A stretch of DNA of 64,000 nt from Promethearchaeota archaeon (GTDB lineage: Archaea; Asgardarchaeota; Lokiarchaeia; Sigyniarchaeales; SOKP01): the NCBI GenBank assembly GCA_019058015.1, contig JAHLWH010000091.1:1241-65240 (forward strand). Direction: 5' to 3'. The notes below the pieces were generated by a model. It searched no databases and was not told the origin of the DNA. It saw nothing but the letters and a program-made list of their open reading frames with translations. Position 1 is the stretch's first letter. The number at the start of each line of letters is the position of its first letter. Position numbers and translations under genes: made by a program. Below are positions 9,249 to 54,769 of the stretch, piece after piece.

Positions 9249-9983
9249 CTATTCTCTTTGAATTTTATCCCTTAATTCAAGAAGTATATCGGGATAATTA
9301 GTATAAATCGCATCCACGTATTTACCATTATGATTCATTTTTAAAAATCTTTTCATAAAAAAAAGAGTATTTACACCCCAAACGTAAAAACTAAAACCAG
9401 CATTTTTGATTTGCTTAAAAAAGTTCAATTTAGCTTGAATATTTCTGATATTGAAACCGTAGATTTTTAATTTATTCATCTTATTGAATTTCAAATCTTT
9501 TTCTTCTATAATTGGGTGTCTTTCTGATATCGAATAAATTAATTTGGCTTCTTTCTCCATTTTTCTTATTTTTGAAAAAAGATAAAAATTATTTCCAACT
9601 AACTCTACTTTCTCAAGTATATTATATTCTCTGGCAAGTCTAATTATTTTAAAACCAACATTATTGCCTTTTAAATCGATACTATACTTAATATTTTTAC
9701 TTTTAAATACATCAAATACTTCACCTAAGTTAGGAATTTTTTTATTTCCTTTAAGGCGAATTTCTTTAATTTCTCTTAAAGTCAATTTATTTATCTCAAT
9801 CTTTTTACCATCTTTTTCCACAATGTAATCGTGAAAGAGAACTATTTGTCCATCTTTAGAAAGATGAGCATCCGTTTCAATTCCATCAACCCCCATCTCA
9901 ACAGCTTTACGAAACGAATCGATTGTATTTTCAACAGAATAAATCCCCGCCCCTCTATGTCCCCATATAAAAGTTCGATTCAA
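9249..9983 (-). CDS. Glycerophosphodiester phosphodiesterase (GDPD family)
   Basis: The N-terminal WGHRGAG...ENTIDSFRKAVEMGVDGIETDAHLSKDGQIVLFHD is the canonical GDPD catalytic signature (HRG...EN...E.D......HD). Confidence 0.8.
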   Translation of the reverse strand: MNRTFIWGHRGAGIYSVENTIDSFRKAVEMGVDGIETDAHLSKDGQIVLFHDYIVEKDGKKIEINKLTLREIKEIRLKGNKKIPNLGEVFDVFKSKNIKYSIDLKGNNVGFKIIRLAREYNILEKVELVGNNFYLFSKIRKMEKEAKLIYSISERHPIIEEKDLKFNKMNKLKIYGFNIRNIQAKLNFFKQIKNAGFSFYVWGVNTLFFMKRFLKMNHNGKYVDAIYTNYPDILLELRDKIQRE

Positions 9984-36679: not shown

Positions 36680-36922
36680 ATGGTTTATAGAACGAAATAT
36701 ATCTTTTTTAGATGCATTAATTGTGGAGAATGGTATTATACTACTAAAATTATTAAGAGAAAAAAATGCATTAAATGTCATAAATCATTTTCCTTTGAAA
36801 AAGCTTCAAAATTTTTTCAAAAATGTTCCATAAAAGAAGCTATAATAATAATTAAGAAAAAAAAGAAGAAGCAATATTTAATTAGATATAAGAAAGATAA
36901 TCATAAAAAAAATATTATATAA
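36680..36922 (+). CDS. Small zinc-ribbon protein with Lys-rich tail (DUF1922-like, tentative)
   Basis: 80 aa. CINCGEWYY...(x13)...CIKCHK is a C4 ribbon, and the C-terminus is KKKKKKQYLIRYKKDNHKK. Confidence 0.35.
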   Translation: MVYRTKYIFFRCINCGEWYYTTKIIKRKKCIKCHKSFSFEKASKFFQKCSIKEAIIIIKKKKKKQYLIRYKKDNHKKNII

Positions 36923-37024
36923 GACTTTTTATAACTTTATTGATTAGGCATTTCTTTTTTCTTTTATTAGTATTCATTTTATTTTAATGAACCAAAGGAA
37001 TTCTCATATCGATTTTTTCTTAAT

Positions 37025-37588
37025 TTAATTTTTAGCAAGACCTTTATAGATTACAAATAACCTAACAAAAAGACTATTGTAATTCTTCCTTGTAAATTCT
37101 TTGTTAACATAATTGCGTGCAGTAAATTTGTATTTTGTACGCTCTAACAAATAACAAATAACTGTCCTAGGTTCCATACTTCTATACCTTCTCCCATTAT
37201 CTTGAATATTAATTACCTCATCCCATTTGAAAAATTTTTCTTTTTTATTAAAAGTTCTAAAAAATACACCTTGAGTTCCAACAATAAGAAACCTTAAATA
37301 TTTAATAAATATTGCAGATCCCAATATAACAAATAATACCATCCCAAAAAATGATAGTATTCCAAGATTTTCCAATGGGTAAATTAGGAATACACAAAGC
37401 ATAATAAATGCTATTATCCAGCATAGAATTAAAAGAAAATAATCAGTTGTATCAAACCCTCCTTTCATTACAAAAATCTTTTCTTCAGAAAATGCTTTTG
37501 AAATATCTTGGTCAGTACTGTATCTTCCAAAATTATAACTTCTATTTTTATATTTTTGATAGGTTTCTTTTAACTTTTCTATCTCCAT
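37025..37588 (-). CDS. Membrane protein with two TM helices and a cytosolic beta-rich domain (bacterial-PH/DUF304-like, tentative)
   Basis: 187 aa with two adjacent hydrophobic helices (YFLLILCWIIAFIMLCVFLIYPL, GILSFFGMVLFVILGSAIFI), followed by GVFFRTFNKKEKFFKWDEVINIQ. Confidence 0.35.
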   Translation of the reverse strand: MEIEKLKETYQKYKNRSYNFGRYSTDQDISKAFSEEKIFVMKGGFDTTDYFLLILCWIIAFIMLCVFLIYPLENLGILSFFGMVLFVILGSAIFIKYLRFLIVGTQGVFFRTFNKKEKFFKWDEVINIQDNGRRYRSMEPRTVICYLLERTKYKFTARNYVNKEFTRKNYNSLFVRLFVIYKGLAKN

Positions 37589-37953
37589 TTTATTTCGACC
37601 TTCGAAAATTTGAGATTAATATTTTAATCTCACTTATTAAAATTTGCTTTTTAATTTAAAAATTTAATCTAATCCTCTTAAATTTTTTAATTAAAGACAT
37701 TTAAATTAAAGAAACCGTTCTTTTTTTGTAAATATTAATCATCAACTTCTGTTTTTATTCATCCAATATTGTTATAACACCTAACTTTTTTGCATGGATA
37801 AAAAATTCAGTGACAAATTTTCATTAATTTTATTGTTCTAAATCTTAAAAAAATCACTTCTTAATCGATTTAATAAATATATAAAGAATGTAAATGTAAA
37901 TAAATTAAACAAAGGCAAAATTTTAAAAACAGAAATCGTATTGATAATTTAAC

Positions 37954-43154: not shown

Positions 43155-45494
43155 CTATTTTGATTTAACTTTATCATTTTGATATTTGAAATTTGCGATT
43201 TTATATATTTCCTGTGCTAATTTCTTTCCAATATTAGGTGTTTCCATTAAGTTTCCAATATCAGCATTGAAAATATCCTTAATTTTATGGAATTTTGATA
43301 ATAACCTTTTTGCTCTTAAATAATTAATCCCCGGAACTCCGGCAATAATAAATTCTAATAACCGAGATATTTTTATTGGTGCTTTTTCAAATCTTAATTT
43401 AAATTCTTGCTTTTTTAAAGATTGTTCTTTCTTAACTAAATGGTATAATGTTTTAGCGGTTTCTCGAGAATCCTTTGTTTGATAGATATAAATACCCATA
43501 TTAATCATAACAGAAAAAATAGCACCATATATAGCATTTTCGCTTAGATTTGAAGAAATAATTGGGTTTTCACCTTCGAGAATTAAGATTGGCCGATAAA
43601 AATTTTGTGATAAGTCTTTTAATTCTTTAAAAAAACGTCCATCTTTTATTGAATCTGAAAAATCTTTAGTGCTTTTTCTTTCAACCCCAACCTTTTTTGA
43701 AATAATATAATCCGCAACTTCCAAATTCTGGAGCTTTATTTGAACTCCATATAAAGATAATGTCCTAACTACTGAAGAGGCTGTTTCACGATTATCCACA
43801 TAAATAGTATAATTTTCTGCTCCTCTTATTGGAGTAATCGATTCTGAATCTAAGTAATTTTCCAAACCATTTTTTTTTTTTTGCTCAATATCTTTGATAA
43901 AATCCATTAAATTCTTTTTCTTTTCATACTTTGAATTTTTCATTCTTATCAAACTCTCTTTCATTTTTTTTTCTTTCGTTAATTCCGCCCAATAATAACC
44001 TTCATCTCGGGTGCCCTTTGCGATTAATATTATTATTTTTCCTGCCTTTTGCCTTCCTGTACGTCCACGTCTTTGAATTGATCGAACAACGCTTGGTGTC
44101 ATATCATAAAAAATTACCAAATCACAATCTGGTATATCAAGTCCTTCTTCACCAACATTAGTCGAGACTAATACATTATAAATTCCTTCCTTAAACTTAT
44201 CAAGTATTTCTAATTGATTTTTCTGAGACATACCCTTATCTCGTCCTTTTGTTTGTTGACCTACAAATTTATGAATTTGAATAACGTCATCTTCACCGAA
44301 ATAATTAATTATATTATTAACTGAGTCTCGATATTGTGAAAAAACTAAAATCCTCGAATTTTCATTTAAAGAAATTTGTTCAGATAATAATTCCTTTAAT
44401 TTTTTCATCTTTGGATGAATTATTCCTTCTGAGATTAGCTTTCGTGTTAAATTAATGGCTTTTTTGAAATCTCGATTTTGAAATAACTCATTAAGTGATT
44501 TTGAACTCTTATTATTTTGAATATTTTCCTCACTTTTGGTAAAATATTGCTCTAGAGCTTTAAGACCCTGCGTCTCCAATAGTTCAATCATATGGGATAA
44601 GCGTAAGGCATTTGCAACCATCTTTTTTGCATTAAACATAGCGAATTTCTCATTATCATCAGTTGTTTGAGAAATTTTTAAATCAATTTCTTTATTTAAT
44701 CCCAGTATTTTTAAACGGGATATGTTTCTGATTACTTCGCTTTCAATTAAGTTCTGATGTTTTAAGAATTTATAAGTTTCTTTTAACTTTTTTTCTAAAA
44801 TATTTAAAATTTCTAAAAAGTCTTCAGGTAAATCAATTTTAATCCATATAATATCAACTTTTTGAATATAAGGTTTGACATCTTCATCCTTCTCTGTCCT
44901 AATCTCGATTTTATCGATAAATAAATTTTCTTTTATTATATTAATTTTCTCTTCAGTCGCCCCTGGACTTGCCGTTATTCCTAAGATTTGTTTATTTCCA
45001 CCAAGACTAATATATTTTTGAGCAATAAACGTATACGCATAATTCCCTACTGCTCTATGACATTCATCAAAAATGATTAAAGAAACATTACTGAGAGAAT
45101 AGTTATTTGAGATTATATCATTAGAAGTAGTTTGAGGAGTTGAAAAAACTATTTTTGCATTTTTCCATAATTCTTTTCTTTTTTCTGGTGATATCGCTCC
45201 TGTAAATACAATGAGTTTCTCATCTGGAATATTAGTAAATTCTGAAAAAATTTTTTTATGTTGTACAACCAGTGGTTTAGTTGGAGCAAGAAACAAAATT
45301 TTCGAATTTTTTTTTTCATTTAATTTATACATAACAAGTAATAACGCAATTATTGTTTTACCTAAACCTGTTGGAATAACAACTAAGCAATTTGAATTAA
45401 TACAATTTATAAAAATATTTTCTTGATATTTTCTTCTAATTAATTTATTTCTTTTTAGAAGTGGATGATTAATATAAATCTTATCTTTATTCAA
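43155..45494 (-). CDS. hef: Hef (helicase-associated endonuclease for fork-structured DNA; XPF/FANCM-like)
   Basis: The SF2 helicase part has PTGLGKT, DECH, TASP and QRRGRTGR. The C-terminal ERCC4 nuclease part has VDNRE...GVERKS..DF, followed by an HhH2 region (GVPGINYLRAKRLL...NIGKKLAQEIY). Confidence 0.85.
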   Translation of the reverse strand: MNKDKIYINHPLLKRNKLIRRKYQENIFINCINSNCLVVIPTGLGKTIIALLLVMYKLNEKKNSKILFLAPTKPLVVQHKKIFSEFTNIPDEKLIVFTGAISPEKRKELWKNAKIVFSTPQTTSNDIISNNYSLSNVSLIIFDECHRAVGNYAYTFIAQKYISLGGNKQILGITASPGATEEKINIIKENLFIDKIEIRTEKDEDVKPYIQKVDIIWIKIDLPEDFLEILNILEKKLKETYKFLKHQNLIESEVIRNISRLKILGLNKEIDLKISQTTDDNEKFAMFNAKKMVANALRLSHMIELLETQGLKALEQYFTKSEENIQNNKSSKSLNELFQNRDFKKAINLTRKLISEGIIHPKMKKLKELLSEQISLNENSRILVFSQYRDSVNNIINYFGEDDVIQIHKFVGQQTKGRDKGMSQKNQLEILDKFKEGIYNVLVSTNVGEEGLDIPDCDLVIFYDMTPSVVRSIQRRGRTGRQKAGKIIILIAKGTRDEGYYWAELTKEKKMKESLIRMKNSKYEKKKNLMDFIKDIEQKKKNGLENYLDSESITPIRGAENYTIYVDNRETASSVVRTLSLYGVQIKLQNLEVADYIISKKVGVERKSTKDFSDSIKDGRFFKELKDLSQNFYRPILILEGENPIISSNLSENAIYGAIFSVMINMGIYIYQTKDSRETAKTLYHLVKKEQSLKKQEFKLRFEKAPIKISRLLEFIIAGVPGINYLRAKRLLSKFHKIKDIFNADIGNLMETPNIGKKLAQEIYKIANFKYQNDKVKSK

Positions 45495-45693
45495 ATTAAT
45501 ATCTCCAAATTTAATTACGTTTTTACTTCTTTATCTTTTGTATTTTATGACACTATTCCCTAAAATTCAAAAATATTTTGATTTTGAGTTAAATTAATAA
45601 TTTATAAGAGAATAGAAAAACAGATTTATTAATTAATTAATAGACTTAATAACAGTTTTTTCTGTAATTTGTTATTCTATAAGTAGTTACTTT

Positions 45694-48600
45694 TTAATTT
45701 TCAGTAAAATACAATAAATCCATAATAGATAAATTATCTGGAATCTTTATACCTAAGACTTTACATTGTTGAATGATATAATTCCTAATTGGTTCAAAGT
45801 TTTTAAAAGTATGAATATAATAGGGGATTTCAACTAAAGTAACATTATTTCCTTTACACCTTTTCCTTTTAATTCTACTATTTGCTAATTGTTTTTCAAA
45901 TTCTTCCCTAGTTTTATGATAATAATTTGGAAATTCATAATGTTGAATCCCATGATATTCAAAAGCTATACTTAATTCTTCACAATATCCATCAAGATGT
46001 AATCTATTGCCTTCTTCATTAATTAACCAATGGGGACTTAATTTTGGAAAATTTTTTTTAAATATTTTCTCAAAATATTCACGACAGTTATTTTCACTAC
46101 GACCATAGGAACATTCTGGACACCAATGACCTTCTGTAACATCATTAGGCTTCATTTCAAATGTATGCCCCTTACTACATTCCCACATTAATTTTGTCCT
46201 ATTATTAATATATATTTTTGAAACACATATCCCCCTTTTATCTAATTTCCTCGCAATTAGTTGCATTCTTTCAATATTTCGTTTATTATATTCTTTTTTT
46301 AAATTATCTAATGCCTCTAAAGATTGTTCTTTATTCTTTCCAGATAATTTTTTATTTATTTTATTTTCTAGTTTTTCAATGGTTATGTTTTTTAAGAATT
46401 TATATGAATGCAAGCATTTATTTACATCAATACTAAATTCTAATCCTAATTCGTAATTGCTAATAAATTTCTTATTTACTTCTCTTGAAAAAGCTGTTGA
46501 TAAAGTATCAAAAAATTTTCCCTCGATAGCATTTGCGTTCTTATCTTCAGAATAAAAAGTATTTAATCTTTCTAGTGTTTTTAAAGCTAACTTCTTATTT
46601 TTTCCCGATAAATTCCTTTCTATAGAGTCAATAAAACATCTTAAACTATCATTAGAAATTTTTGAATTATTTTTTAAAGACCGTGTTATATCTAAATTTA
46701 GAATATTTCCCAATTCCTTATTATTTATGAATCGACTTTTTTCATTAACAAAAGCAACACGTAATACCTCAAAAAATCGACCTTCAAGAGATTTTTCGAT
46801 TTTATCAAAATTTTTTTTCTCTTTTAAAGAATTTAAAAGATCTATAGATTTTCTCTTGACATCTCCAGTTAGATATTTATTTATATTATGTTCTATTTCT
46901 TTAATTGTATCATATCTAATTTTCACATTATACTTGGAACACCGATGTATTATTTGATATATATTTCTTGTTATTTTATTTTTATAACCTAGAACATTTG
47001 AGAAGTTTTTACGAATTTTTTTCAATACATCTAATGTGAGTGAAATATCTTTATTTTCAATATTTTCATTTCTGTTTATGTTAGGTCGCATTTTCTTATC
47101 CGACATAACTTCATTTATATATTCTTTATAAGTTTTTCCTAATTTTTTTTTTAACCATTCACTTCTTATATTTTGGAAATATTTTTCTCTTAACCCTTGA
47201 AATTCACTTAAATTTTTAACATTTACAAAATTAATAGAAACTTCCACCTCTTTTTTTAAAAGAGAATATTTTTCATCAAAAAAATCAAGTAATTTCGATT
47301 TTATAGATTTTTTTTCCTCTGATTTAATAGAATTCAAATAATATTGTTCAATAATATAATTAATTTTTCTCCAATCAATCTTAAGTCCTATATTATTTGC
47401 AATTTCTTGTACTTTATTTATATCTAAATTGCAATACTTCAATTTATAGGCAATAAATTTTTCGATTTCCTTATTTTTATTAATGTTAATACATTTTATT
47501 CTTAAACCATTTTCGACCTTTTTATTATAATTTACCCAATACAAAAATTTTTTTGTAAGTCTTAGACCATAATTAGCATTTTTTTTAAAGATTTTTTCAT
47601 ATTCTATAAATATTTTTTGAACTCCTTTATCCATCAAGTTTGTAAATTCCAATGTTTGTTTTAGTTTAATATCCAATTTCGATATCATTTCTTTTTCGTT
47701 GGTTATATTTTCATTTATGTTTTTAAAATCCGAATTTTCTTTATCTATGATATTTTCTTTTTTATTACAATTAATTTCTTCATTTGTTTTTCCAATTTTT
47801 GAAATCGTTTTTTTCTCCACACTAATAGAATTTTTATCTAATGTTTTATCTGATTTTTTTTCTCTAGGAATATTAATGGGAGTTCCATGTGAGCCAGATA
47901 ATTCTTCAATTTCATTTTCAATCTCTCTATTTTTATAATCATTTGGATGCCCTTCTGTGATTTCGTGTGATTTATTATTATATTCATCTAGAACTTCTAT
48001 TTCTCTTGTCTCCTTTTCCAATTTTTCTTTTTCTAAATTATAAATTTTATTACAATATTCCTGCTCTCTTTCCCGTAAATCCAGAAATTCTTTTTTTAAT
48101 TCTCTATTTTCTTTCCTTAAAATTTGATTCTCTGAAATTTCAGTTTCATCAATATCTTTGTAAATTGACTCTGCGAATATCTTGATCTCTATATTATTTT
48201 CCTTAGCAATTTTCTCAATAGTACCAAAACTTATTTCCAATCCTGTATGTTTTTCATAGTCTGAAATAAATTCTAACGGATTATCCTTATTATAAAGTAC
48301 ATCAATTAAGAATTTATCAAATAAATGTTTCTTGTTTATCAGATCACATTTTTCTAAAAGACTTTCTCTATAATGATCAATGACCCCATCGTCTAATTTC
48401 TCAATGTATTCCTTGAACTCTGGTCTTATTTCTGTACCCTTATTAGCAGATATTTTCTTTTCTATAGAAAACTCTTCTAGATACATCTGCAATATGAAAT
48501 CCCCAAAAACTTCAATAGTTTCTTTTCTATACTCTTCGATTTCTTTTTTAGTAATTCCCTCGTGGACCTCTTCTTTTTCTTTATCATCTATCTTTTCTTT

Positions 48601-48990
48601 AAGTTTTTCACTTTTAATATCCTTTGTTTCATCATTTGCCTTTTCTTTATCTTTATCCTTCAATTCTTCTTGATGTCTATCATTTTTTCCATCTTTAGTT
48701 ATTCTCTCATCAATTTCTTTTCTTTTTTGGCTTTCTTCCTCTTCATTCAGTTTTTTCTTCTCTTCTGCTTCTTCTTTTAGCCTTTCTAAATATTCTTTCG
48801 ATTCTCGCTTCTCCTTTTCATCTTGTTCCTTTATCATTTCTTCAAGCTCTTTTTTTTTTAATTTTTCTTCAGAAATATCATCTTTTCTTTCTTGAGGTCT
48901 ATCTTCTATTTTCTCCTTGGGTTTTTCCTTTATTTTTTCTTTAGGCTTCTCATAATAATCTTTACCGCCCCAATCACTACCAAACTCCAT
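45694..48990 (-). CDS. Orphan 1098-aa modular protein: K/E-rich N-terminus, HTH-like helical modules (three tandem ~87-aa repeats), C-terminal zinc ribbon plus Vsr/PD-(D/E)xK-like domain
   Basis: This is one uninterrupted ORF. Aa 1-160 are charged and low-complexity (KEKIKEKPKEKIEDRP...). Aa 648-905 hold three tandem related modules. Aa 931-960 read WECSKGH...HWCPEC. Aa 997-1017 read LHLDGYCEELSIAFEYHGIQH. All antisense ORFs in the track here are shadows of the purine-rich coding strand. Confidence 0.7.
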   Translation of the reverse strand: MEFGSDWGGKDYYEKPKEKIKEKPKEKIEDRPQERKDDISEEKLKKKELEEMIKEQDEKEKRESKEYLERLKEEAEEKKKLNEEEESQKRKEIDERITKDGKNDRHQEELKDKDKEKANDETKDIKSEKLKEKIDDKEKEEVHEGITKKEIEEYRKETIEVFGDFILQMYLEEFSIEKKISANKGTEIRPEFKEYIEKLDDGVIDHYRESLLEKCDLINKKHLFDKFLIDVLYNKDNPLEFISDYEKHTGLEISFGTIEKIAKENNIEIKIFAESIYKDIDETEISENQILRKENRELKKEFLDLREREQEYCNKIYNLEKEKLEKETREIEVLDEYNNKSHEITEGHPNDYKNREIENEIEELSGSHGTPINIPREKKSDKTLDKNSISVEKKTISKIGKTNEEINCNKKENIIDKENSDFKNINENITNEKEMISKLDIKLKQTLEFTNLMDKGVQKIFIEYEKIFKKNANYGLRLTKKFLYWVNYNKKVENGLRIKCININKNKEIEKFIAYKLKYCNLDINKVQEIANNIGLKIDWRKINYIIEQYYLNSIKSEEKKSIKSKLLDFFDEKYSLLKKEVEVSINFVNVKNLSEFQGLREKYFQNIRSEWLKKKLGKTYKEYINEVMSDKKMRPNINRNENIENKDISLTLDVLKKIRKNFSNVLGYKNKITRNIYQIIHRCSKYNVKIRYDTIKEIEHNINKYLTGDVKRKSIDLLNSLKEKKNFDKIEKSLEGRFFEVLRVAFVNEKSRFINNKELGNILNLDITRSLKNNSKISNDSLRCFIDSIERNLSGKNKKLALKTLERLNTFYSEDKNANAIEGKFFDTLSTAFSREVNKKFISNYELGLEFSIDVNKCLHSYKFLKNITIEKLENKINKKLSGKNKEQSLEALDNLKKEYNKRNIERMQLIARKLDKRGICVSKIYINNRTKLMWECSKGHTFEMKPNDVTEGHWCPECSYGRSENNCREYFEKIFKKNFPKLSPHWLINEEGNRLHLDGYCEELSIAFEYHGIQHYEFPNYYHKTREEFEKQLANSRIKRKRCKGNNVTLVEIPYYIHTFKNFEPIRNYIIQQCKVLGIKIPDNLSIMDLLYFTEN
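46276..47049 (-). repeat. Three tandem ~87-aa protein-level repeat modules inside the 1098-aa ORF
   Basis: Repeat anchors are spaced 87-88 aa apart. One set is LTGDVKRKSIDLLNSLKE (aa 707), LSGKNKKLALKTLERLN (aa 794) and LSGKNKEQSLEALDNLKK (aa 882). Another is LEGRFFEVLRVAF (aa 735) and IEGKFFDTLSTAF (aa 822). A third is NNKELGNILNLDITRSL and SNYELGLEFSIDVNKCL. Confidence 0.6.
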
Positions 48991-49091
48991 AATTTATCAC
49001 AATTTATTTTCTATTAATAATATTATAAATTAAACATTTATAAAGAGAAAAATCCTTTATATCAAATACAACCTAACTCACTAATAATGAT

Positions 49092-49195
49092 TAGGCGAGG
49101 GGGAATTCGAATCCCCGATCTCTACGGTCTGCCCATTAATCTAAAATTAAAATAATTGTGAGCGTAGCGCACTAACCGGGCTGTGCTACTCGCCT
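49092..49195 (-). tRNA. tRNA-Val (anticodon CAC) with an intron in the anticodon loop
   Basis: Manual cloverleaf: acceptor AGGCGAG/CTCGCCT; D arm GCAC-AGCCCGGTTA-GTGC; anticodon stem CTACG/CGTAG with loop CTCACA|intron|C; variable loop AGATC; T arm GGGGA-TTCGAAT-TCCCC; discriminator A. CCA is not encoded. A TTTATATA-like element (minus strand, about 49214..49221) lies about 20-26 nt upstream. Confidence 0.85.
49128..49156 (-). other. tRNA intron (about 29 nt) at or near the canonical 37/38 position
   Basis: AUUAUUUUAAUUUUAGAUUAAUGGGCAGA separates A37 from C38. Exon CUCA (32-35) can pair with intron UGGG, and intron UUA can pair with UAA. The 3' bulge is longer than a strict bulge-helix-bulge motif, so the exact boundaries are provisional. 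Confidence 0.55.
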
Positions 49196-50854: not shown

Positions 50855-53800
50855 TTAGGCTTCTATTATCGGTAGAGTAAAATAAAATTCAGTTCCTTTG
50901 TCTTTTCCTTTTGAAGTTCCCCATATTTTTCCACCATGTGCTTCCACAATTCCTTTTGAAATATAAAGCTCAAGTCCTAACCCCTTTTTTCTATTGATAT
51001 GATCAGCACTCTCTTTCTCAATTACTTCAAATTTTTTGAATAATTTTCTAATATCATGAATATTCAACCCTTTACCGTCATTTCTAACTTTAAACAGAAA
51101 TTGATTTTTAATCTTTTTGGCTGAGATCTCGATATTGCCACCATTCAAAGTGAATTTTACAGCATTTAAGAATAAATTAGAAAATACTTCATAAATTCTA
51201 TTGGGGTCAACTTTCAGATATAAATTTTTTTGAACATCTACAATAACATTAAGTTTTTTATCGTTTATTTGAAAACTTAGTTCTTCAACGCAATTTTCAA
51301 TTATATCGTAGATATTTTTTTCCTCTCGGATTATTTCCATTTTTTTTGCATCAATTTTCATTACATCTAATAATTTCTCGATTAAAAGATTTAATCGCTG
51401 AGAATTTTTTTGGATAAGTAAGAGATCTTTCCTGATTTCAAAATCCAACTCTTTATTATGTGTTAAAATATAATCTGTATACCCCGTGATAGAAACCATA
51501 GGTGTTTTTAATTCATGAGCTGCAATTGTAATAAAATCATTTTTTAACTCATCCAATCTCCTTAATTCAATATTCTGCTTCCTTAATTTTTCTTCAGATT
51601 TTCTTAATTTCTGCTCTGCCAACTTCAAGTTGCTAATATCATCAAAAGTTCCTAATACCTTGATGGTTTTTCCTTCTTGATCTAATGTTGGGACCAATTT
51701 AGATCTAAAGAACATAGACTTCCCCCATTTCGAAATGTAAGGTCGCTCAGAACTGATCTTTCGATTTTCCATTATGCACTTTTTAAAATCAGCGGAAATT
51801 CCTGCCTTCATTAAAAGAGGAAAAGTTAAAAGATTAATCTTTTTAGTAGCTTCTTTAGAAGGAGACCCAAGGAGTTTAAGGGCACTTGTATTGACATTAA
51901 GAATGTTTCCATTGACATCACAAGTCAAGATTCCTATAGGTGCTTCATCAAAAAGTGTTCTATATTTTTCTTCTGATTCTTTTATTTGTTGTTCTGCTTC
52001 TTTACGGTCAGTAATATTTCGTATGAAAATTGCAACTTGTTCCTTAGAAAAAAAGAGAAGTCGTGCTTCGTAATACTGATCTTTACTTTTCATGGGAAGA
52101 CAATATTCTAAAATTTGTGGTTGTTTCGAGCTTATTGTCTTTGATACATATTCTTTAGCCATTTTTCCAAGTTTAAAAGGTAATAAGTTACTCAGTTTTT
52201 CACTAAGAAACTGTTCAGGAGAAATAAAAAATTCTTCCCTTTTTCCACGATAATCTATTATGGTAGTATTCTCATCAACAAGAAAGAATAAATCTGGAAT
52301 TGATTCAAAAATTTGCCTGAATTTTTTTTCAGATTTTTCCAATTCTTTAGTCCTTTCAATTACCTTATTTTCCAATTCTCTATTTAATTTTTTTAATTCC
52401 TTCTCAGCTACTTTCCTTTCTGTTATGTCTTGAAGTATTACTTGAATAAGTTTTTTCTCACCTAATTTCACTAAAGAGATATGTAAATTTATCCATACTA
52501 AAGAACCATCCTCAGTATAGCCAGGAATTTCAATAGTAGGTGTAATCATCCCTCCGAGGATCTTCTTAATTCTATCTTCGAATAAATCTTGGAGCTCAGA
52601 TACCTTAAATAACGGTATAATTTCTTTATAATTCTTATTTAATATCTCTTCTTTTTTAATTTCATATAATTTTTCAATAGTCGAATTACTTTCTATAATG
52701 TTTCCCTTTGTATCTACTAATAAAATTGAAAAAGGTGAATTCTCAAATAAATGTCGATATTTTTCCTCAGATTCTTTTAATTTTTCTTCCGCTCTTTTCT
52801 TGTCAGTGATATCTCTTAATAATGTAATAAAACCTACTACATTCCCATTTTTATCATAGTAATTTTTAGAGGAACTTGATAACCAAATATAATGGCCATC
52901 TTTATGTAATGTTCGAAATTCAACTTCACATTTTTCTAAAACTTGTTTTTGTCTAATGGCTTCAGAAAAAAACTTTATTAAATCTTTAAGATCATTTGGA
53001 TGAATTTTGTCAAATAAATTTGATTTAAGATTAATTTCTCTTCCCATCATTTTAGAAAGCTGAGGAGAAACAAATTTATATTTTCCATCAAATCCAACAA
53101 TTACTATTGCATCCTTCGAATTTTCGATAATATTTCTATATTTTTTCTCGGATTTCCTTAATTTTTCTTCCGCTATTTTCTTATCTGTGATATCTTCCGT
53201 GTGAACTAAAACCAAATCTGGAGGAACAAAACCGTAATTAGTTAAAAGATATTTTTTTTTATTTGTACTTTGATAATAATAAAATATTTCACGAGAAATA
53301 TTAACTCTGTCTTTAATACAACGATATAATTCTTCTAAAATTACCGGTTGATCCTTATATAATTCAGACGCTTTAATTCCTAAATAATTTTTAATTTTAC
53401 TATCAGTTATTTTCTCAGAAGCATTATTATAATCAATTAATACGAGATCATTACCATCCTTTTGCCATGTGTATGTAGGGATTGGGATTCCCTTATAAAG
53501 TGCTTTAAATCTCTCTTCAGATGCTTTTAACTTTTGTTCTGCTATTTTACGCTCAGTAATATCACTAATTATACATCTTACACCCGAAATATTTCCTTCT
53601 TTATAAGTCTGTTTAGAATGAATTCTAGCATAAAAGGTGGTTCCGTTCTTTTCTTTCATTAAATATTCCCGAGGTTTAGGTATTTCACCTTTAATTAATT
53701 CTCTAAAATTTTGCATTACTCTTTCTTTTTCCTCAGGAGCAAACATTTCAAGAGCATTTAAACCTCTGTTAATATCTTCCTGAGAATAGCCAAATTTTTC

Positions 53801-54769
53801 AAATCCAATTTGATTAGAATAAGTTATATTAAATTTAGGACCAACCTCAAAAATAATATCAGGCAATAATTCAACCAATTCTCTATGTTTTTTTTCGGAT
53901 TGTTTCAAATTCTGTGTTCTTTCATCAATTTTTTGTTCTAATTCCTTATTCAAATTATTCAATTTTTTCCCGGATTCTTTTAATGCAATTTCCATTTCCT
54001 TCTTATAAGTAATATCTACTAACGTTATAAAATCTGCAGGTTTTCCTTGATATAAAATTGATCTGGAATATACATCAATATATTTTAACTTTCCAGACTT
54101 TGTGAATATTCTACAAGAATATTGTGTTGCAACGTCTGTTTCTCCGGCTTGTTTTTTTTTTGCTTCATCTACTATAAATGATAAATCATCAGGATGAATA
54201 AATCTAATAAATTCCTGCATTGATAAATCTTTAATTTCTTGAAAAGGACGACCACCAATCTTCGCAGCAGTTTCATTTACATATTTAAAAACACCATCCT
54301 GAAGAATAATAATTCCCATTAATGATTGTTCAGAAATTGATCTGAATTTAGATTCTGATTCTTTTAATTTTTTCTCAGAGTTCTTTCTTTCGGTGATATC
54401 ATTTGCAATGCCCAAAATTGCGTAAATTTCTCCATTTTTTTTTAATGGAATTCCATAGGACTCAACATATATAAAATCGCCATTTTTTGTTTTAAGTTGA
54501 TATTCGCTACGTTTAGATTGTTTGCCATTTTCTCTGAGTTCTTTAATAGTGTTTAATGCATCTACTATTTGACCTTTATCAATTAAATCTTTAAAAGAGA
54601 GATTTGGAATATCTTTTCTCTTATATCCAAGCGTTTCTAATGTAACATCATTTGCATCAATAAAATTTCCCTTTAAATCGTGAGCATAAATTAAATCTAA
54701 GGAATTCTCAAATAACGCTTTATATTCTTTCCTAATCTCAGCTCCATCATATGCCATTTTTATCCTCAA
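50855..54769 (-). CDS. Multi-PAS sensor histidine kinase (eight PAS/PAC units + HisKA + HATPase_c)
   Basis: Eight PAS units are delimited by recurring linkers: DITERK, DITDKK, NITDRK or DISNLK followed by AE.KL+.SEEK(Y/F)R. The H-box is ITIAAHELKTPMVSITGY, the N-box is NLFLNAVKFT, G1 is RNDGKGL and G2 is GLGLELYISKGIVEAHGG. Confidence 0.9.
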   Translation of the reverse strand: MRIKMAYDGAEIRKEYKALFENSLDLIYAHDLKGNFIDANDVTLETLGYKRKDIPNLSFKDLIDKGQIVDALNTIKELRENGKQSKRSEYQLKTKNGDFIYVESYGIPLKKNGEIYAILGIANDITERKNSEKKLKESESKFRSISEQSLMGIIILQDGVFKYVNETAAKIGGRPFQEIKDLSMQEFIRFIHPDDLSFIVDEAKKKQAGETDVATQYSCRIFTKSGKLKYIDVYSRSILYQGKPADFITLVDITYKKEMEIALKESGKKLNNLNKELEQKIDERTQNLKQSEKKHRELVELLPDIIFEVGPKFNITYSNQIGFEKFGYSQEDINRGLNALEMFAPEEKERVMQNFRELIKGEIPKPREYLMKEKNGTTFYARIHSKQTYKEGNISGVRCIISDITERKIAEQKLKASEERFKALYKGIPIPTYTWQKDGNDLVLIDYNNASEKITDSKIKNYLGIKASELYKDQPVILEELYRCIKDRVNISREIFYYYQSTNKKKYLLTNYGFVPPDLVLVHTEDITDKKIAEEKLRKSEKKYRNIIENSKDAIVIVGFDGKYKFVSPQLSKMMGREINLKSNLFDKIHPNDLKDLIKFFSEAIRQKQVLEKCEVEFRTLHKDGHYIWLSSSSKNYYDKNGNVVGFITLLRDITDKKRAEEKLKESEEKYRHLFENSPFSILLVDTKGNIIESNSTIEKLYEIKKEEILNKNYKEIIPLFKVSELQDLFEDRIKKILGGMITPTIEIPGYTEDGSLVWINLHISLVKLGEKKLIQVILQDITERKVAEKELKKLNRELENKVIERTKELEKSEKKFRQIFESIPDLFFLVDENTTIIDYRGKREEFFISPEQFLSEKLSNLLPFKLGKMAKEYVSKTISSKQPQILEYCLPMKSKDQYYEARLLFFSKEQVAIFIRNITDRKEAEQQIKESEEKYRTLFDEAPIGILTCDVNGNILNVNTSALKLLGSPSKEATKKINLLTFPLLMKAGISADFKKCIMENRKISSERPYISKWGKSMFFRSKLVPTLDQEGKTIKVLGTFDDISNLKLAEQKLRKSEEKLRKQNIELRRLDELKNDFITIAAHELKTPMVSITGYTDYILTHNKELDFEIRKDLLLIQKNSQRLNLLIEKLLDVMKIDAKKMEIIREEKNIYDIIENCVEELSFQINDKKLNVIVDVQKNLYLKVDPNRIYEVFSNLFLNAVKFTLNGGNIEISAKKIKNQFLFKVRNDGKGLNIHDIRKLFKKFEVIEKESADHINRKKGLGLELYISKGIVEAHGGKIWGTSKGKDKGTEFYFTLPIIEA

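Follow-up and report, generated by a model that had tools for sequence, protein, structure and literature searches.

The DNA analyzed here is a 64,000-nucleotide stretch from a Promethearchaeota archaeon, referred to as the window, in which a single large ORF separates a tRNA-Val gene from the repair gene hef. The ORF is monocistronic, starts with ATG and occupies positions 45694 to 48990 of the reverse strand, as do all the features described below. It encodes a protein of 1098 residues, and in the window only the ORF of a 1304-residue PAS histidine kinase is larger, so that its reality and size rank were as given in a preliminary description of this DNA, whose account of the anatomy also largely held. 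The ORF is unbroken in three assemblies, and its locus-sharing orthologues are P0001 (99%) and P0002 (91%). A foreign composition was rejected, and the deviation in codon usage considered earlier was not seen: GC3 is typical of the window, and codon usage compared with it is fully native. Whole-protein and profile searches of PDB by sequence yielded no meaningful match for the ORF, a scan against NCBIfam returned noise only, and neither Pfam nor NCBIfam contained a domain for its N-terminal part.

Both sides of the ORF are flanked by AT-rich spacers (GC content, about 0.19 to 0.22). The spacer on the hef side runs for 199 nt from the ORF stop codon to hef (45495 to 45693), contains no ORF and is unrelated to the spacer found upstream of hef in genomes that lack the gene. 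On the tRNA side, the spacer measures 101 nt and includes a promoter and 5′ leader region carried with the gene (48991 to 49073), with the TATA-like element CTCTTTATAAATG. The tRNA-Val gene itself (49092 to 49195; Rfam RF00005, 54.2 bits), which an ARAGORN run missed, has a CAC anticodon and an intron of about 31 nt in the anticodon loop. Both the spacers and the intron-containing tRNA gene had been recognized in the preliminary description.

A nuclease tail related to viral homing endonucleases

The C-terminal 194 residues are predicted to consist of one treble-clef Zn finger followed by a nuclease core of the EDxHD/Vsr group. The Zn finger, of the DUF4379/CapR type, spans residues 906 to 961 (46108 to 46275). 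It matched Pfam DUF4379 above the cut-off (27.6 versus 24.5 bits) and CapR with an E value of 0.0016, and its CxxxH...CxxC ligands, C938, H942, C957 and C960, are conserved without exception in 33/33 sequences, which confirms the zinc element placed earlier near the C terminus. In the Vsr/DUF559/DUF2726-group core (residues 962 to 1075; 45766 to 46107), E966, D1000, E1011, G1014 and H1017 are invariant across homologues. The last Asp of the core is present in all 32 of 32 homologues and is replaced by Ser1038 in the 1098-residue ORF and its orthologues, suggesting that the nuclease may be weakened. The nearest relative, P0001, carries an E1011D replacement.

The "RD" pair of the nuclease family aligns with R96-D97 of Vsr, which places Ser1038 at the position of Vsr Asp97. 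Among the 33 homologues, Pfam DUF2726 matched 13 and DUF559 matched 1; both families have been grouped with Vsr and I-Bth0305I (PMC3424549). An AF2 model of the nuclease tail, built from 11 sequences, had a pLDDT of 82 and a helix-strand-strand-strand-helix-strand order. Foldseek with this model found no significant match in PDB (1vsr ranked 39th, E = 2), a profile search of the tail against PDB gave no match, and hhalign of the tail against Vsr returned a probability of 0.7%, though in the expected RD register. The Vsr/DUF559-like assignment made earlier agrees with the invariant residues and the Pfam matches; the fold search did not confirm it.

The same unit is frequent in viruses. The 194 residues matched phrog_559 (E = 4e-26) as well as phrog_9084 and phrog_7140, annotated "homing endonuclease" and "intron encoded nuclease," respectively. 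We found the Zn-finger and nuclease unit at 225 viral loci in IMG/VR, giant-virus MAGs included, and, under the annotation of homing endonuclease, in 92 phage records; one example is a 445-residue "homing endonuclease" of Enterococcus phage EFP01, which stands on its own between tail genes. Phage homing endonucleases with a CapR/DUF4379-like plus EDxHD/Vsr-like architecture have been described (PMC12350094), as have DNA-binding beads made of Zn fingers and the swapping of domains in genes of this kind (PMC10055350), and "restriction endonucleases" of Marseilleviridae are among the nucleases that combine CapR/DUF4379/DUF723-type Zn fingers with an EDxHD/Vsr-like core (PMC5513546). The 194 residues align end to end with these viral enzymes at 35 to 48% identity, with invariant Zn ligands and E/D/E/H residues, and the viral enzymes and the ORF alike stand free between other genes and readily swap domains. 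Judged by these alignments, the C-terminal unit is part of a described and very common viral homing-endonuclease family.

In contrast to the viral enzymes, which have three to five Zn fingers and homologous ORFs of 176 to 616 residues, the archaeal ORF has one finger and is 2 to 5 times longer. It has about 900 extra N-terminal residues, with modules absent from PHROGs and Pfam, is located in the chromosome of an Asgard archaeon and has Ser1038 in place of the invariant Asp. The earlier view that the architecture as a whole was an orphan thus failed for the C-terminal 194 residues and stood for the remainder: the ORF is a virus-style Zn-finger and Vsr-like nuclease tail joined to helical modules that had no earlier description.

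The ORF also shares its plan with I-Bth0305I, the prototype of the EDxHD family (PMC3239194; PDB 3r3p), in that an N-terminal multi-module DNA-binding region, predicted in the ORF, precedes a C-terminal Vsr-group nuclease, and the E, D, H and D residues conserved in I-Bth0305I have counterparts in the ORF family. No sequence-level match of the ORF to 3r3p or Vsr was found in PDB sequence and profile searches. I-Bth0305I differs by its NUMOD motifs and its location inside a group I intron; the ORF has neither a NUMOD match nor an intron.

Helical modules upstream of the nuclease

The N-terminal 150 residues (48541 to 48990) hold the peptide MEFGSDWGGKDY, followed by a low-complexity stretch. 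Lys, Glu and Asp make up 58 to 64% of residues 1 to 150, in keeping with the charged tail reported in the preliminary description. Then comes the first copy (residues 151 to 268; 48187 to 48540) of a module denoted type A, which has six helices and is HTH-like in its C-terminal part; the copy was delimited by jackhmmer and by an alignment, A2. A charged, coiled-coil-like, low-complexity linker (residues 269 to 439; 47674 to 48186), in which the orthologous locus L003 differs by an in-frame indel of 42 nt at codon 319, connects it to the second copy (residues 440 to 556; 47323 to 47673), recovered by jackhmmer and also present in P0005. The two copies, of about 115 residues each, were related by direct pairwise comparison (z = 4.8), and the two HTH-like strings pointed out earlier proved real, lying at equivalent positions in both copies in the jackhmmer and A2 alignments. 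Their proposed resemblance to NUMOD modules was not borne out, as neither NUMOD nor any other Pfam family matched the type-A module in scans of the ORF and its four segments with E values up to 10.

An AF2 model of the type-A module built on A2 had a pLDDT of 92 and a pTM of 0.84. Foldseek with this model against PDB and BFVD gave no significant fold match, and a word-indexed search that used the type-A alignment recovered a single fragment, already known. The module recurs in tandem ahead of four different C-terminal domains, three of which are established nuclease types. This recurrence points to a modular DNA-recognition unit, which makes the type-A module a candidate new nuclease-associated DNA-binding domain.

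Three tandem modules of about 87 residues, denoted type B (residues 648 to 735, 736 to 822 and 823 to 905; 46276 to 47049), precede the Zn finger. Their pairwise similarities (z = 15.4 for modules 2 and 3, 6.0 for 1 and 3 and 4.3 for 1 and 2) and their recovery by jackhmmer substantiate the triplication noted earlier. The possibility that type B represents a diverged type A was rejected (hhalign probability, 0.3%), as was the presence of type-B modules in P0004, in which jackhmmer did not detect them. The sequence pattern and the confident helical model suggest that modules of both types may bind DNA.

Paralogues with other nuclease domains

At other loci in related genomes, paralogues of the ORF are found as single genes amid ordinary chromosomal genes. 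They have the same promoter and N-terminal third and end in LAGLIDADG or HNH tails; above Pfam cut-offs, LAGLIDADG_3 was present in P0004, P0016 and P0020, and HNH_3 occurred twice in P0006. The N-terminal peptide is kept in P0004, P0017, P0018, P0019 and P0020. What the paralogues share with the gene begins in its promoter and leader region, with homology to L001, L006 and L007 starting at window positions 49052 to 49068; homology to paralogues stops around residue 332 (position 47995), inside the linker. The L007 copy has two frameshifts. At L006, which harbors the HNH variant, the head is a separate 199-residue ORF (P0019) ahead of P0006, so that this copy also appears split. A metagenome scan with the family head found only two loci, both already known.

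Nucleotide comparisons indicate that family members swap segments by gene conversion. Between positions 48574 and 48036, the window is 98 to 100% identical to L001 and only 81 to 91% identical to its positional orthologue L003; the region of type-A copy 1 has the same 98 to 100% identity to L001, which carries a LAGLIDADG paralogue.

A recombined block between tRNA-Val and hef

Two syntenic genomes with about 90 to 92% DNA identity (L008 and L009) lack the gene, and their hef begins 150 bp after tRNA-Val. Comparison of the hef-to-tRNA-Val junction, as suggested in the preliminary description, thus revealed empty sites in both, showing that the gene is not universal at this locus. The last sequence in common with the gene-less genomes is an 18-mer directly 3′ of the tRNA gene, ATCATTATTAGTGAGTTA (49074 to 49091), which occurs once in the window. 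The variable block therefore has its left junction at 49073/49074, and the same junction is found in L003, L005, L008 and L009.

The right part of the block consists of the first 372 nt of hef (45123 to 45494). These are of divergent ancestry, with 67 to 79% nucleotide identity to L008 and L009, against 93 to 99% for the rest of hef. Between carriers and gene-less genomes, dS is about 1.0 in the first 372 nt and 0.11 to 0.16 in the remainder; hef is thus a mosaic, and the boundary of the divergent tract is sharp. The contrast in dS shows that a block of roughly 4 kb (window positions ~45123 to 49073) came by recombination. As its hef part is far older in divergence than the surroundings, the block was acquired from a divergent donor through homologous recombination. 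These comparisons show the gene to be an accessory insertion between tRNA-Val and hef, within this recombined block, with tRNA-Val as a neighbor that lies outside it. Carriers and non-carriers may represent two sister clades, one gain or loss sufficing. Contig breaks are frequent at the tRNA-Val/hef locus.

The block, with its single ORF, contains no integrase, and neither terminal repeats, terminal inverted repeats, a target duplication nor an att copy was found at its ends or in the window. A transposon or integrative element was rejected for lack of repeats or att sites. We likewise rejected tRNA adjacency as a family trait, since no tRNA lies near L001, L006 or L093; Rfam in gathering mode also overlooked the known tRNA of L003. 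The idea that the tRNA gene had served as an integration hotspot, raised in the preliminary description, does not agree with the lack of integrase, att and terminal repeats, with the location of relatives away from tRNAs or with the recombination footprint on the hef side.

Possible homing and alternative explanations

In our judgment the evidence is evenly poised for the ORF being a large, modular, free-standing gene of the homing-endonuclease type within a small Promethearchaeia-specific family. The preliminary description had envisaged a modular selfish nuclease; the viral-family tail, the empty sites, the hef mosaic and the swapped nuclease tails argue for one of the homing type. The empty sites and the co-inherited divergent tract of hef suggest that the ORF may home. 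The two type-A modules, the three type-B modules and the Zn finger would jointly read a long DNA site, and the nuclease would cut or nick chromosomes that lack the gene, at the 5′ end of hef or close to it. Repair off the carrier copy would then import the gene together with flanking hef sequence, and the diverged hef sequence would shield the carrier from cutting. Against this reading count the length of the protein relative to its viral homologues, its fully native codon usage, Ser1038, the unconfirmed Vsr-like fold and the chance that carriers and non-carriers are sister clades. Ordinary homing endonucleases are also not known to have a conserved N-terminal peptide, a disordered region or a conserved head common to different nucleases.

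The free-standing homing genes of T4-like and ICP1 phages (Seg and Mob; PMC10055350) are similar in several respects: they are single genes between conserved genes, polymorphic for presence or absence, co-inherited with a divergent flanking tract and adjacent to an important gene. They differ in their size (200 to 400 residues), their GIY-YIG or HNH domains, their phage location and the demonstrated cleavage of the neighboring gene, whereas the ORF is in a cellular chromosome and known from sequence alone.

The ORF evolves under relaxed constraint, with a dN/dS of 0.60 as compared with 0.13 to 0.23 for its neighbors; by part, the type-A modules have a ratio of 0.27 to 0.44 and the tandem modules and tail one of about 1. 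Together with the absence of the gene from the two syntenic relatives, its position in a recombinant block and the frameshifted copy, this agrees with the earlier view that it is not a housekeeping gene. Ser1038 at the family-invariant Asp position, E1011D in the nearest relative and a tail dN/dS of about 1 suggest that the present copy may be an attenuated or decaying endonuclease, as would be expected late in the life cycle of homing elements.

The replacements at Ser1038 and, in P0001, at E1011 would also fit a descendant of a homing endonuclease, domesticated by the host as a sequence-specific DNA-binding protein (a regulator, chromatin or repair factor) with an inactive nuclease, in which the N-terminal peptide and disordered tail are working parts. 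Native codon usage, an ORF intact in three assemblies, dN/dS values below 1 in the type-A modules and conservation of the head and promoter across paralogues are in line with domestication. We nevertheless consider it unlikely, because the gene is missing in close relatives, one copy is frameshifted, the tandem modules and tail have a dN/dS of about 1, and most catalytic and Zn residues are still present.

Quite improbable is an origin as the cargo or final remnant of a larger integrated element or island aimed at the tRNA-Val/hef junction, in which case the gene would not move by means of its own nuclease. Such an origin could account for an extra 733-bp segment with a 134-residue membrane ORF inside the same block in L003, L004 and L007, for a hef 5′ fragment that is displaced and precedes other DNA in L005 and for the frequent contig breaks. 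However, the locus has neither an integrase nor att or terminal repeats, the block comprises one or two genes only, and the paralogues elsewhere likewise stand alone among ordinary genes of the chromosome, with no tRNA beside them.

Least probable of all is a conflict-system effector, i.e., an anti-virus defence nuclease (a role that the preliminary description had entertained) or a polymorphic-toxin-like protein with an N-terminal sensing or trafficking module and a C-terminal nuclease swapped under arms-race pressure: the conserved N terminus with variable C-terminal nucleases, the strain-variable gene and its fast evolution would suit such an effector, but PADLOC matched no family for the ORF, P0004, P0006, P0017 and P0021, so that a known defence system was rejected, no immunity ORF lies in the 199-nt downstream spacer, no signal peptide or membrane segment was found in the 1098-residue sequence as read, and both LAGLIDADG tails and HTH-like modules in tandem characterize site-specific homing enzymes rather than toxins. 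Polymorphic toxin systems do share with the ORF family a conserved head, swapped nuclease tails and recombination among paralogues. Unlike them, the family lacks both an immunity gene and any domain for secretion or trafficking, and its tails are of homing type (LAGLIDADG, HNH_3 and EDxHD) with site-recognition modules.

Implications

Homing-endonuclease-type selfish genes are best known from phages, organelles and introns. If homing is the right explanation, such genes also stand free in the chromosomes of Asgard archaea and mark a core repair gene, hef, with recombination scars that can be measured, which bears on how genes move in the lineage nearest to eukaryotes. The annotation of the family is corrected as well, from "HNH endonuclease" or "hypothetical" to a domain of the Vsr group.

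A broader proposal, which we make tentatively and regard as unlikely, is that these genes form a previously unrecognized, multi-copy Promethearchaeia family of "mix-and-match" site-specific nucleases. Each protein would combine one to four copies of the six-helix DNA-reading module of about 115 residues and other helical modules with interchangeable nuclease parts (EDxHD/Vsr-like, LAGLIDADG, HNH and a fourth, unknown domain), under one shared promoter, N-terminal peptide and disordered tail, with reshuffling by gene conversion. If this is true, the family would supply a new scaffold for DNA recognition and would actively drive recombination and gene flow in the lineage of archaea most closely related to eukaryotes.

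The ORF between tRNA-Val and hef

The preliminary description had proposed a single large gene between tRNA-Val and hef, and the sequence bears this out: the ORF has an ATG start, encodes 1098 residues and lies at 45694..48990 on the minus strand. As described, it ranks second in length among the window's ORFs, behind a PAS histidine kinase of 1304 aa, and its N terminus is charged, with Lys, Glu and Asp accounting for 58-64% of residues 1-150. Spacers with a GC content of about 0.19-0.22 separate it from the tRNA (101 nt) and from hef (199 nt), and its own GC3 and codon usage are typical of the window. The host is a low-GC Asgard archaeon; among the other genes of the window are those for an actin homologue and for Arf/Ras-type GTPases, and the syntenic contigs come from Promethearchaeia/Promethearchaeota MAGs.

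The neighboring tRNA-Val (49092-49195, minus strand) was detected with Rfam at 54.2 bits. Its anticodon loop reads CU-CAC-A (Val), with an intron of ~31 nt. ARAGORN reported no tRNA across the entire 64-kb window, tRNA-Val included, and gathering-mode Rfam likewise did not detect the tRNA-Val of L003, a related contig that carries the large gene. Intron-containing tRNAs of this genome are easily overlooked, and further ones may hide in the window. In another relative, L005, the orthologous tRNA-Val (9640-9745) has an anticodon-loop intron and a 31-nt T-loop insert, and was not detected by Rfam. The insert could be a second intron or the mark of a disrupted tRNA.

A C-terminal zinc finger and putative nuclease unit

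Residues 905-1098 form a self-contained unit. A Pfam scan placed DUF4379, a treble-clef Zn finger, above the cut-off, with a weak match to CapR, and a PHROGs search returned phrog_559 at E=4e-26 as well as families labelled "homing endonuclease" and "intron encoded nuclease." Together with additional Zn fingers, the unit makes up stand-alone proteins of 225-324 aa. It also occurs in 92 cultured-phage records and in 225 relatives in IMG/VR (ORFs of 176-616 aa), giant-virus MAGs among them. In Enterococcus phage EFP01 it is part of a 445-aa "homing endonuclease" encoded by a free-standing gene between tail genes. Across 33 aligned sequences there is no variation at the Zn ligands C938, H942, C957 and C960 or at E966, D1000, E1011, G1014 and H1017. 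Thirteen of the 33 members match Pfam DUF2726 and one matches DUF559, both of which have been grouped with Vsr and I-Bth0305I (PMC3424549). A phage homing-endonuclease family in which an EDxHD/Vsr-like domain comes after CapR/DUF4379/DUF723-like Zn domains (PMC12350094) has exactly the same architecture. The C-terminal unit adds a new member to a family that is known and widespread. The AF2 model (pLDDT 82) has the expected order helix-strand-strand-strand-helix-strand. PDB fold and profile searches gave no significant match, and the fold is therefore assigned from sequence evidence at the level of the family.

One position departs from the family. An Asp found in 32/32 homologues, which the hhalign register aligns with R96-D97 of Vsr, is Ser1038 in this protein and its orthologues, a change with which the protein may have ceased to cut. 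P0001, the 99% identical orthologue, has only five differences, one of which is E1011D. Domestication of the gene as a DNA-binding protein may be considered here; we regard it as unlikely, if worth keeping in mind.

Two types of helical module and a conserved N-terminal peptide

Three tandem modules of ~87 aa had been noted at residues 648-905, and these stand out from shuffled sequences (z=15.4, 6.0 and 4.3). Two strings described as HTH-like proved to occupy matching positions in two copies of a distinct module of ~115 aa, located by sequence comparison at residues 151-268 and 440-556 of the minus-strand ORF. We refer to the longer module as type A and to the ~87-aa module as type B; no relation between them was detectable. 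In distant relatives, type A occurs in tandem, in up to four copies. Its AF2 model, built from a 21-sequence alignment, is confident (pLDDT 92, pTM 0.84) and has six helices; the last three resemble a helix-turn-helix whose turn contains an invariant Gly. The module matched no Pfam family, and Foldseek searches of PDB and BFVD with the model found no significant match.

The extreme N terminus (residues 1-9, 48964-48990, minus strand) is a short linear motif conserved in relatives. MEFGSDWGG(K/C)DY is kept even in P0017 and P0018, relatives that are only 32-43% identical elsewhere, and its counterpart in P0020 is MGSDGGGRDY.

A small family that exchanges segments

Relatives of the protein are very few, with 8 and 14 matches in exhaustive and indexed protein searches, respectively. 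P0004, encoded at a different locus, has the promoter and residues 1-332 in common with the large gene (93% DNA identity), followed by a different region that ends in LAGLIDADG_3. The head is likewise combined with LAGLIDADG in P0016 and P0020. P0006, which adjoins a CCG-domain gene, ends in two HNH_3 domains, and its frameshifted head is P0019. Five others (P0017, P0021, P0023, P0024 and P0025) have one to four type-A modules, short HTH-like units of ~36 aa and a conserved C-terminal domain of ~220 aa with invariant G, H, Y, D and K. This domain had no match in Pfam or PDB and may add a fourth type of catalytic domain to the family. The neighbors of the P0017 gene (locus L093) are ordinary chromosomal genes, and no tRNA is close by.

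Over 48574-48036 (residues ~140-318), the gene matches the LAGLIDADG paralogue at L001 with 98-100% identity and the positional orthologue at L003 with only 81-91%, whereas 48964-48815 shows the reverse pattern. These nucleotide comparisons indicate that family members recombine with one another.

Presence, absence and junctions in relatives

The gene occupies this locus in three assemblies: in L094 the protein is 99% identical, and in L003 and L004 it is 91% identical. Two frameshifts are present in a fourth copy, L007, and one of these falls within the nuclease and outside any homopolymer. The MAG contigs L008 and L009 are fully syntenic and about 90-92% identical in DNA without the large gene, hef following the tRNA by 150 bp. 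The left junction, at 49073/49074, 18 nt past the tRNA, is identical in every comparison, and 95-97% identity is kept right up to it on the tRNA side. On the right side, homology with the gene-less genomes starts again within hef, whose first 372 nt have a different ancestry from the rest. Compared with those genomes, nucleotide identity in this tract is 67-79% versus 93-99% beyond it, amino-acid identity 56-80% versus 92-100%, and dS about 1.0 versus 0.11-0.16, with a sharp boundary at 45123. The gene therefore lies in a ~4-kb block that was acquired or swapped through homologous recombination, the donor being far more divergent. The block ends have neither terminal inverted repeats nor a target duplication, the post-tRNA 18-mer is not repeated, and there is no integrase. 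That the gene is left over from a larger island, or was its cargo, appears improbable.

Relative to L003, the large gene had a dN/dS of 0.60, compared with values of 0.13-0.23 in hef, the GTPase and the epimerase. Values of about 1 were obtained in the tandem modules and tail, an estimate based on few changes. A role as a defense or toxin effector is improbable, too. A PADLOC search gave no match, and there is no immunity ORF.

Several arrangements vary around the locus. L003, L004 and L007 have an additional 733-bp segment between tRNA-Val and the large gene (L003 3174-3906, placed at window position 49074/49075) that is absent from the window and L094. It comprises ~100 nt from the start of the "empty-site" hef spacer and a 134-aa ORF that appears to encode four hydrophobic, membrane-type segments. 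L005 (9897-11881) has an intact empty-type spacer, the first 29 hef codons and a stop, then P0005 and the contig end. P0005 (585 aa) combines a new repeat-rich N terminus with type-A module 2. Either hef has been interrupted by an insertion at codon ~27, or the assembly is chimeric here.

The neighboring PAS-rich histidine kinase (50855-54769) has 1304 residues in the window, 1223 in L008, 1537 in L009 and 1415 in L005. In blastn, cross-matches occur among its internal PAS segments, which suggests that PAS-unit copy number varies between strains. A segment of about 960 bp (~36854-37814), including a membrane-like ORF of 187 aa (37025-37588, minus strand), is missing in L008 and L010, while other sequence takes its place in L009; it is a second small strain-variable spot.

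A proposed homing-endonuclease-type gene

The most economical reading of these comparisons is that the large gene is a free-standing homing-endonuclease-type gene. All three nucleases identified in the family, EDxHD/Vsr-like, LAGLIDADG and HNH, are classic homing-endonuclease catalytic domains. The gene by itself varies between presence and absence beside an important gene, a co-inherited divergent tract flanks it on one side, and selection is relaxed, with pseudogene copies. The modules of the protein would bind DNA, the target would lie in the hef 5′ region, and repair from a carrier would copy the gene into place. In L005, foreign DNA follows a piece of hef that runs to codon ~27-29, which hints at a break-prone site in that region.

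The central mechanism would fit a known pattern. In phage homing endonucleases, modular Zn fingers arranged as "beads on a string" have been described, as has recombination that swaps domains (PMC10055350), and I-Bth0305I (PMC3239194) has the plan proposed here for this protein, a multi-module DNA-binding region at the N terminus and a Vsr-like domain at the C terminus. Unlike an ordinary homing endonuclease, however, the protein is 1098 aa long, with the conserved N-terminal peptide MEFGSDWGG and a 150-aa charged tail, and its promoter and head are common to members with differing nucleases. We found no description of the protein or its family in the papers searched on Asgard mobile elements. 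What is new in the protein and its small family is a pair of module types without earlier description, a conserved head of an unusual kind and the setting in an archaeal chromosome. For specialists, the recombination scar in hef, the swapping of nucleases and the new module are noteworthy.
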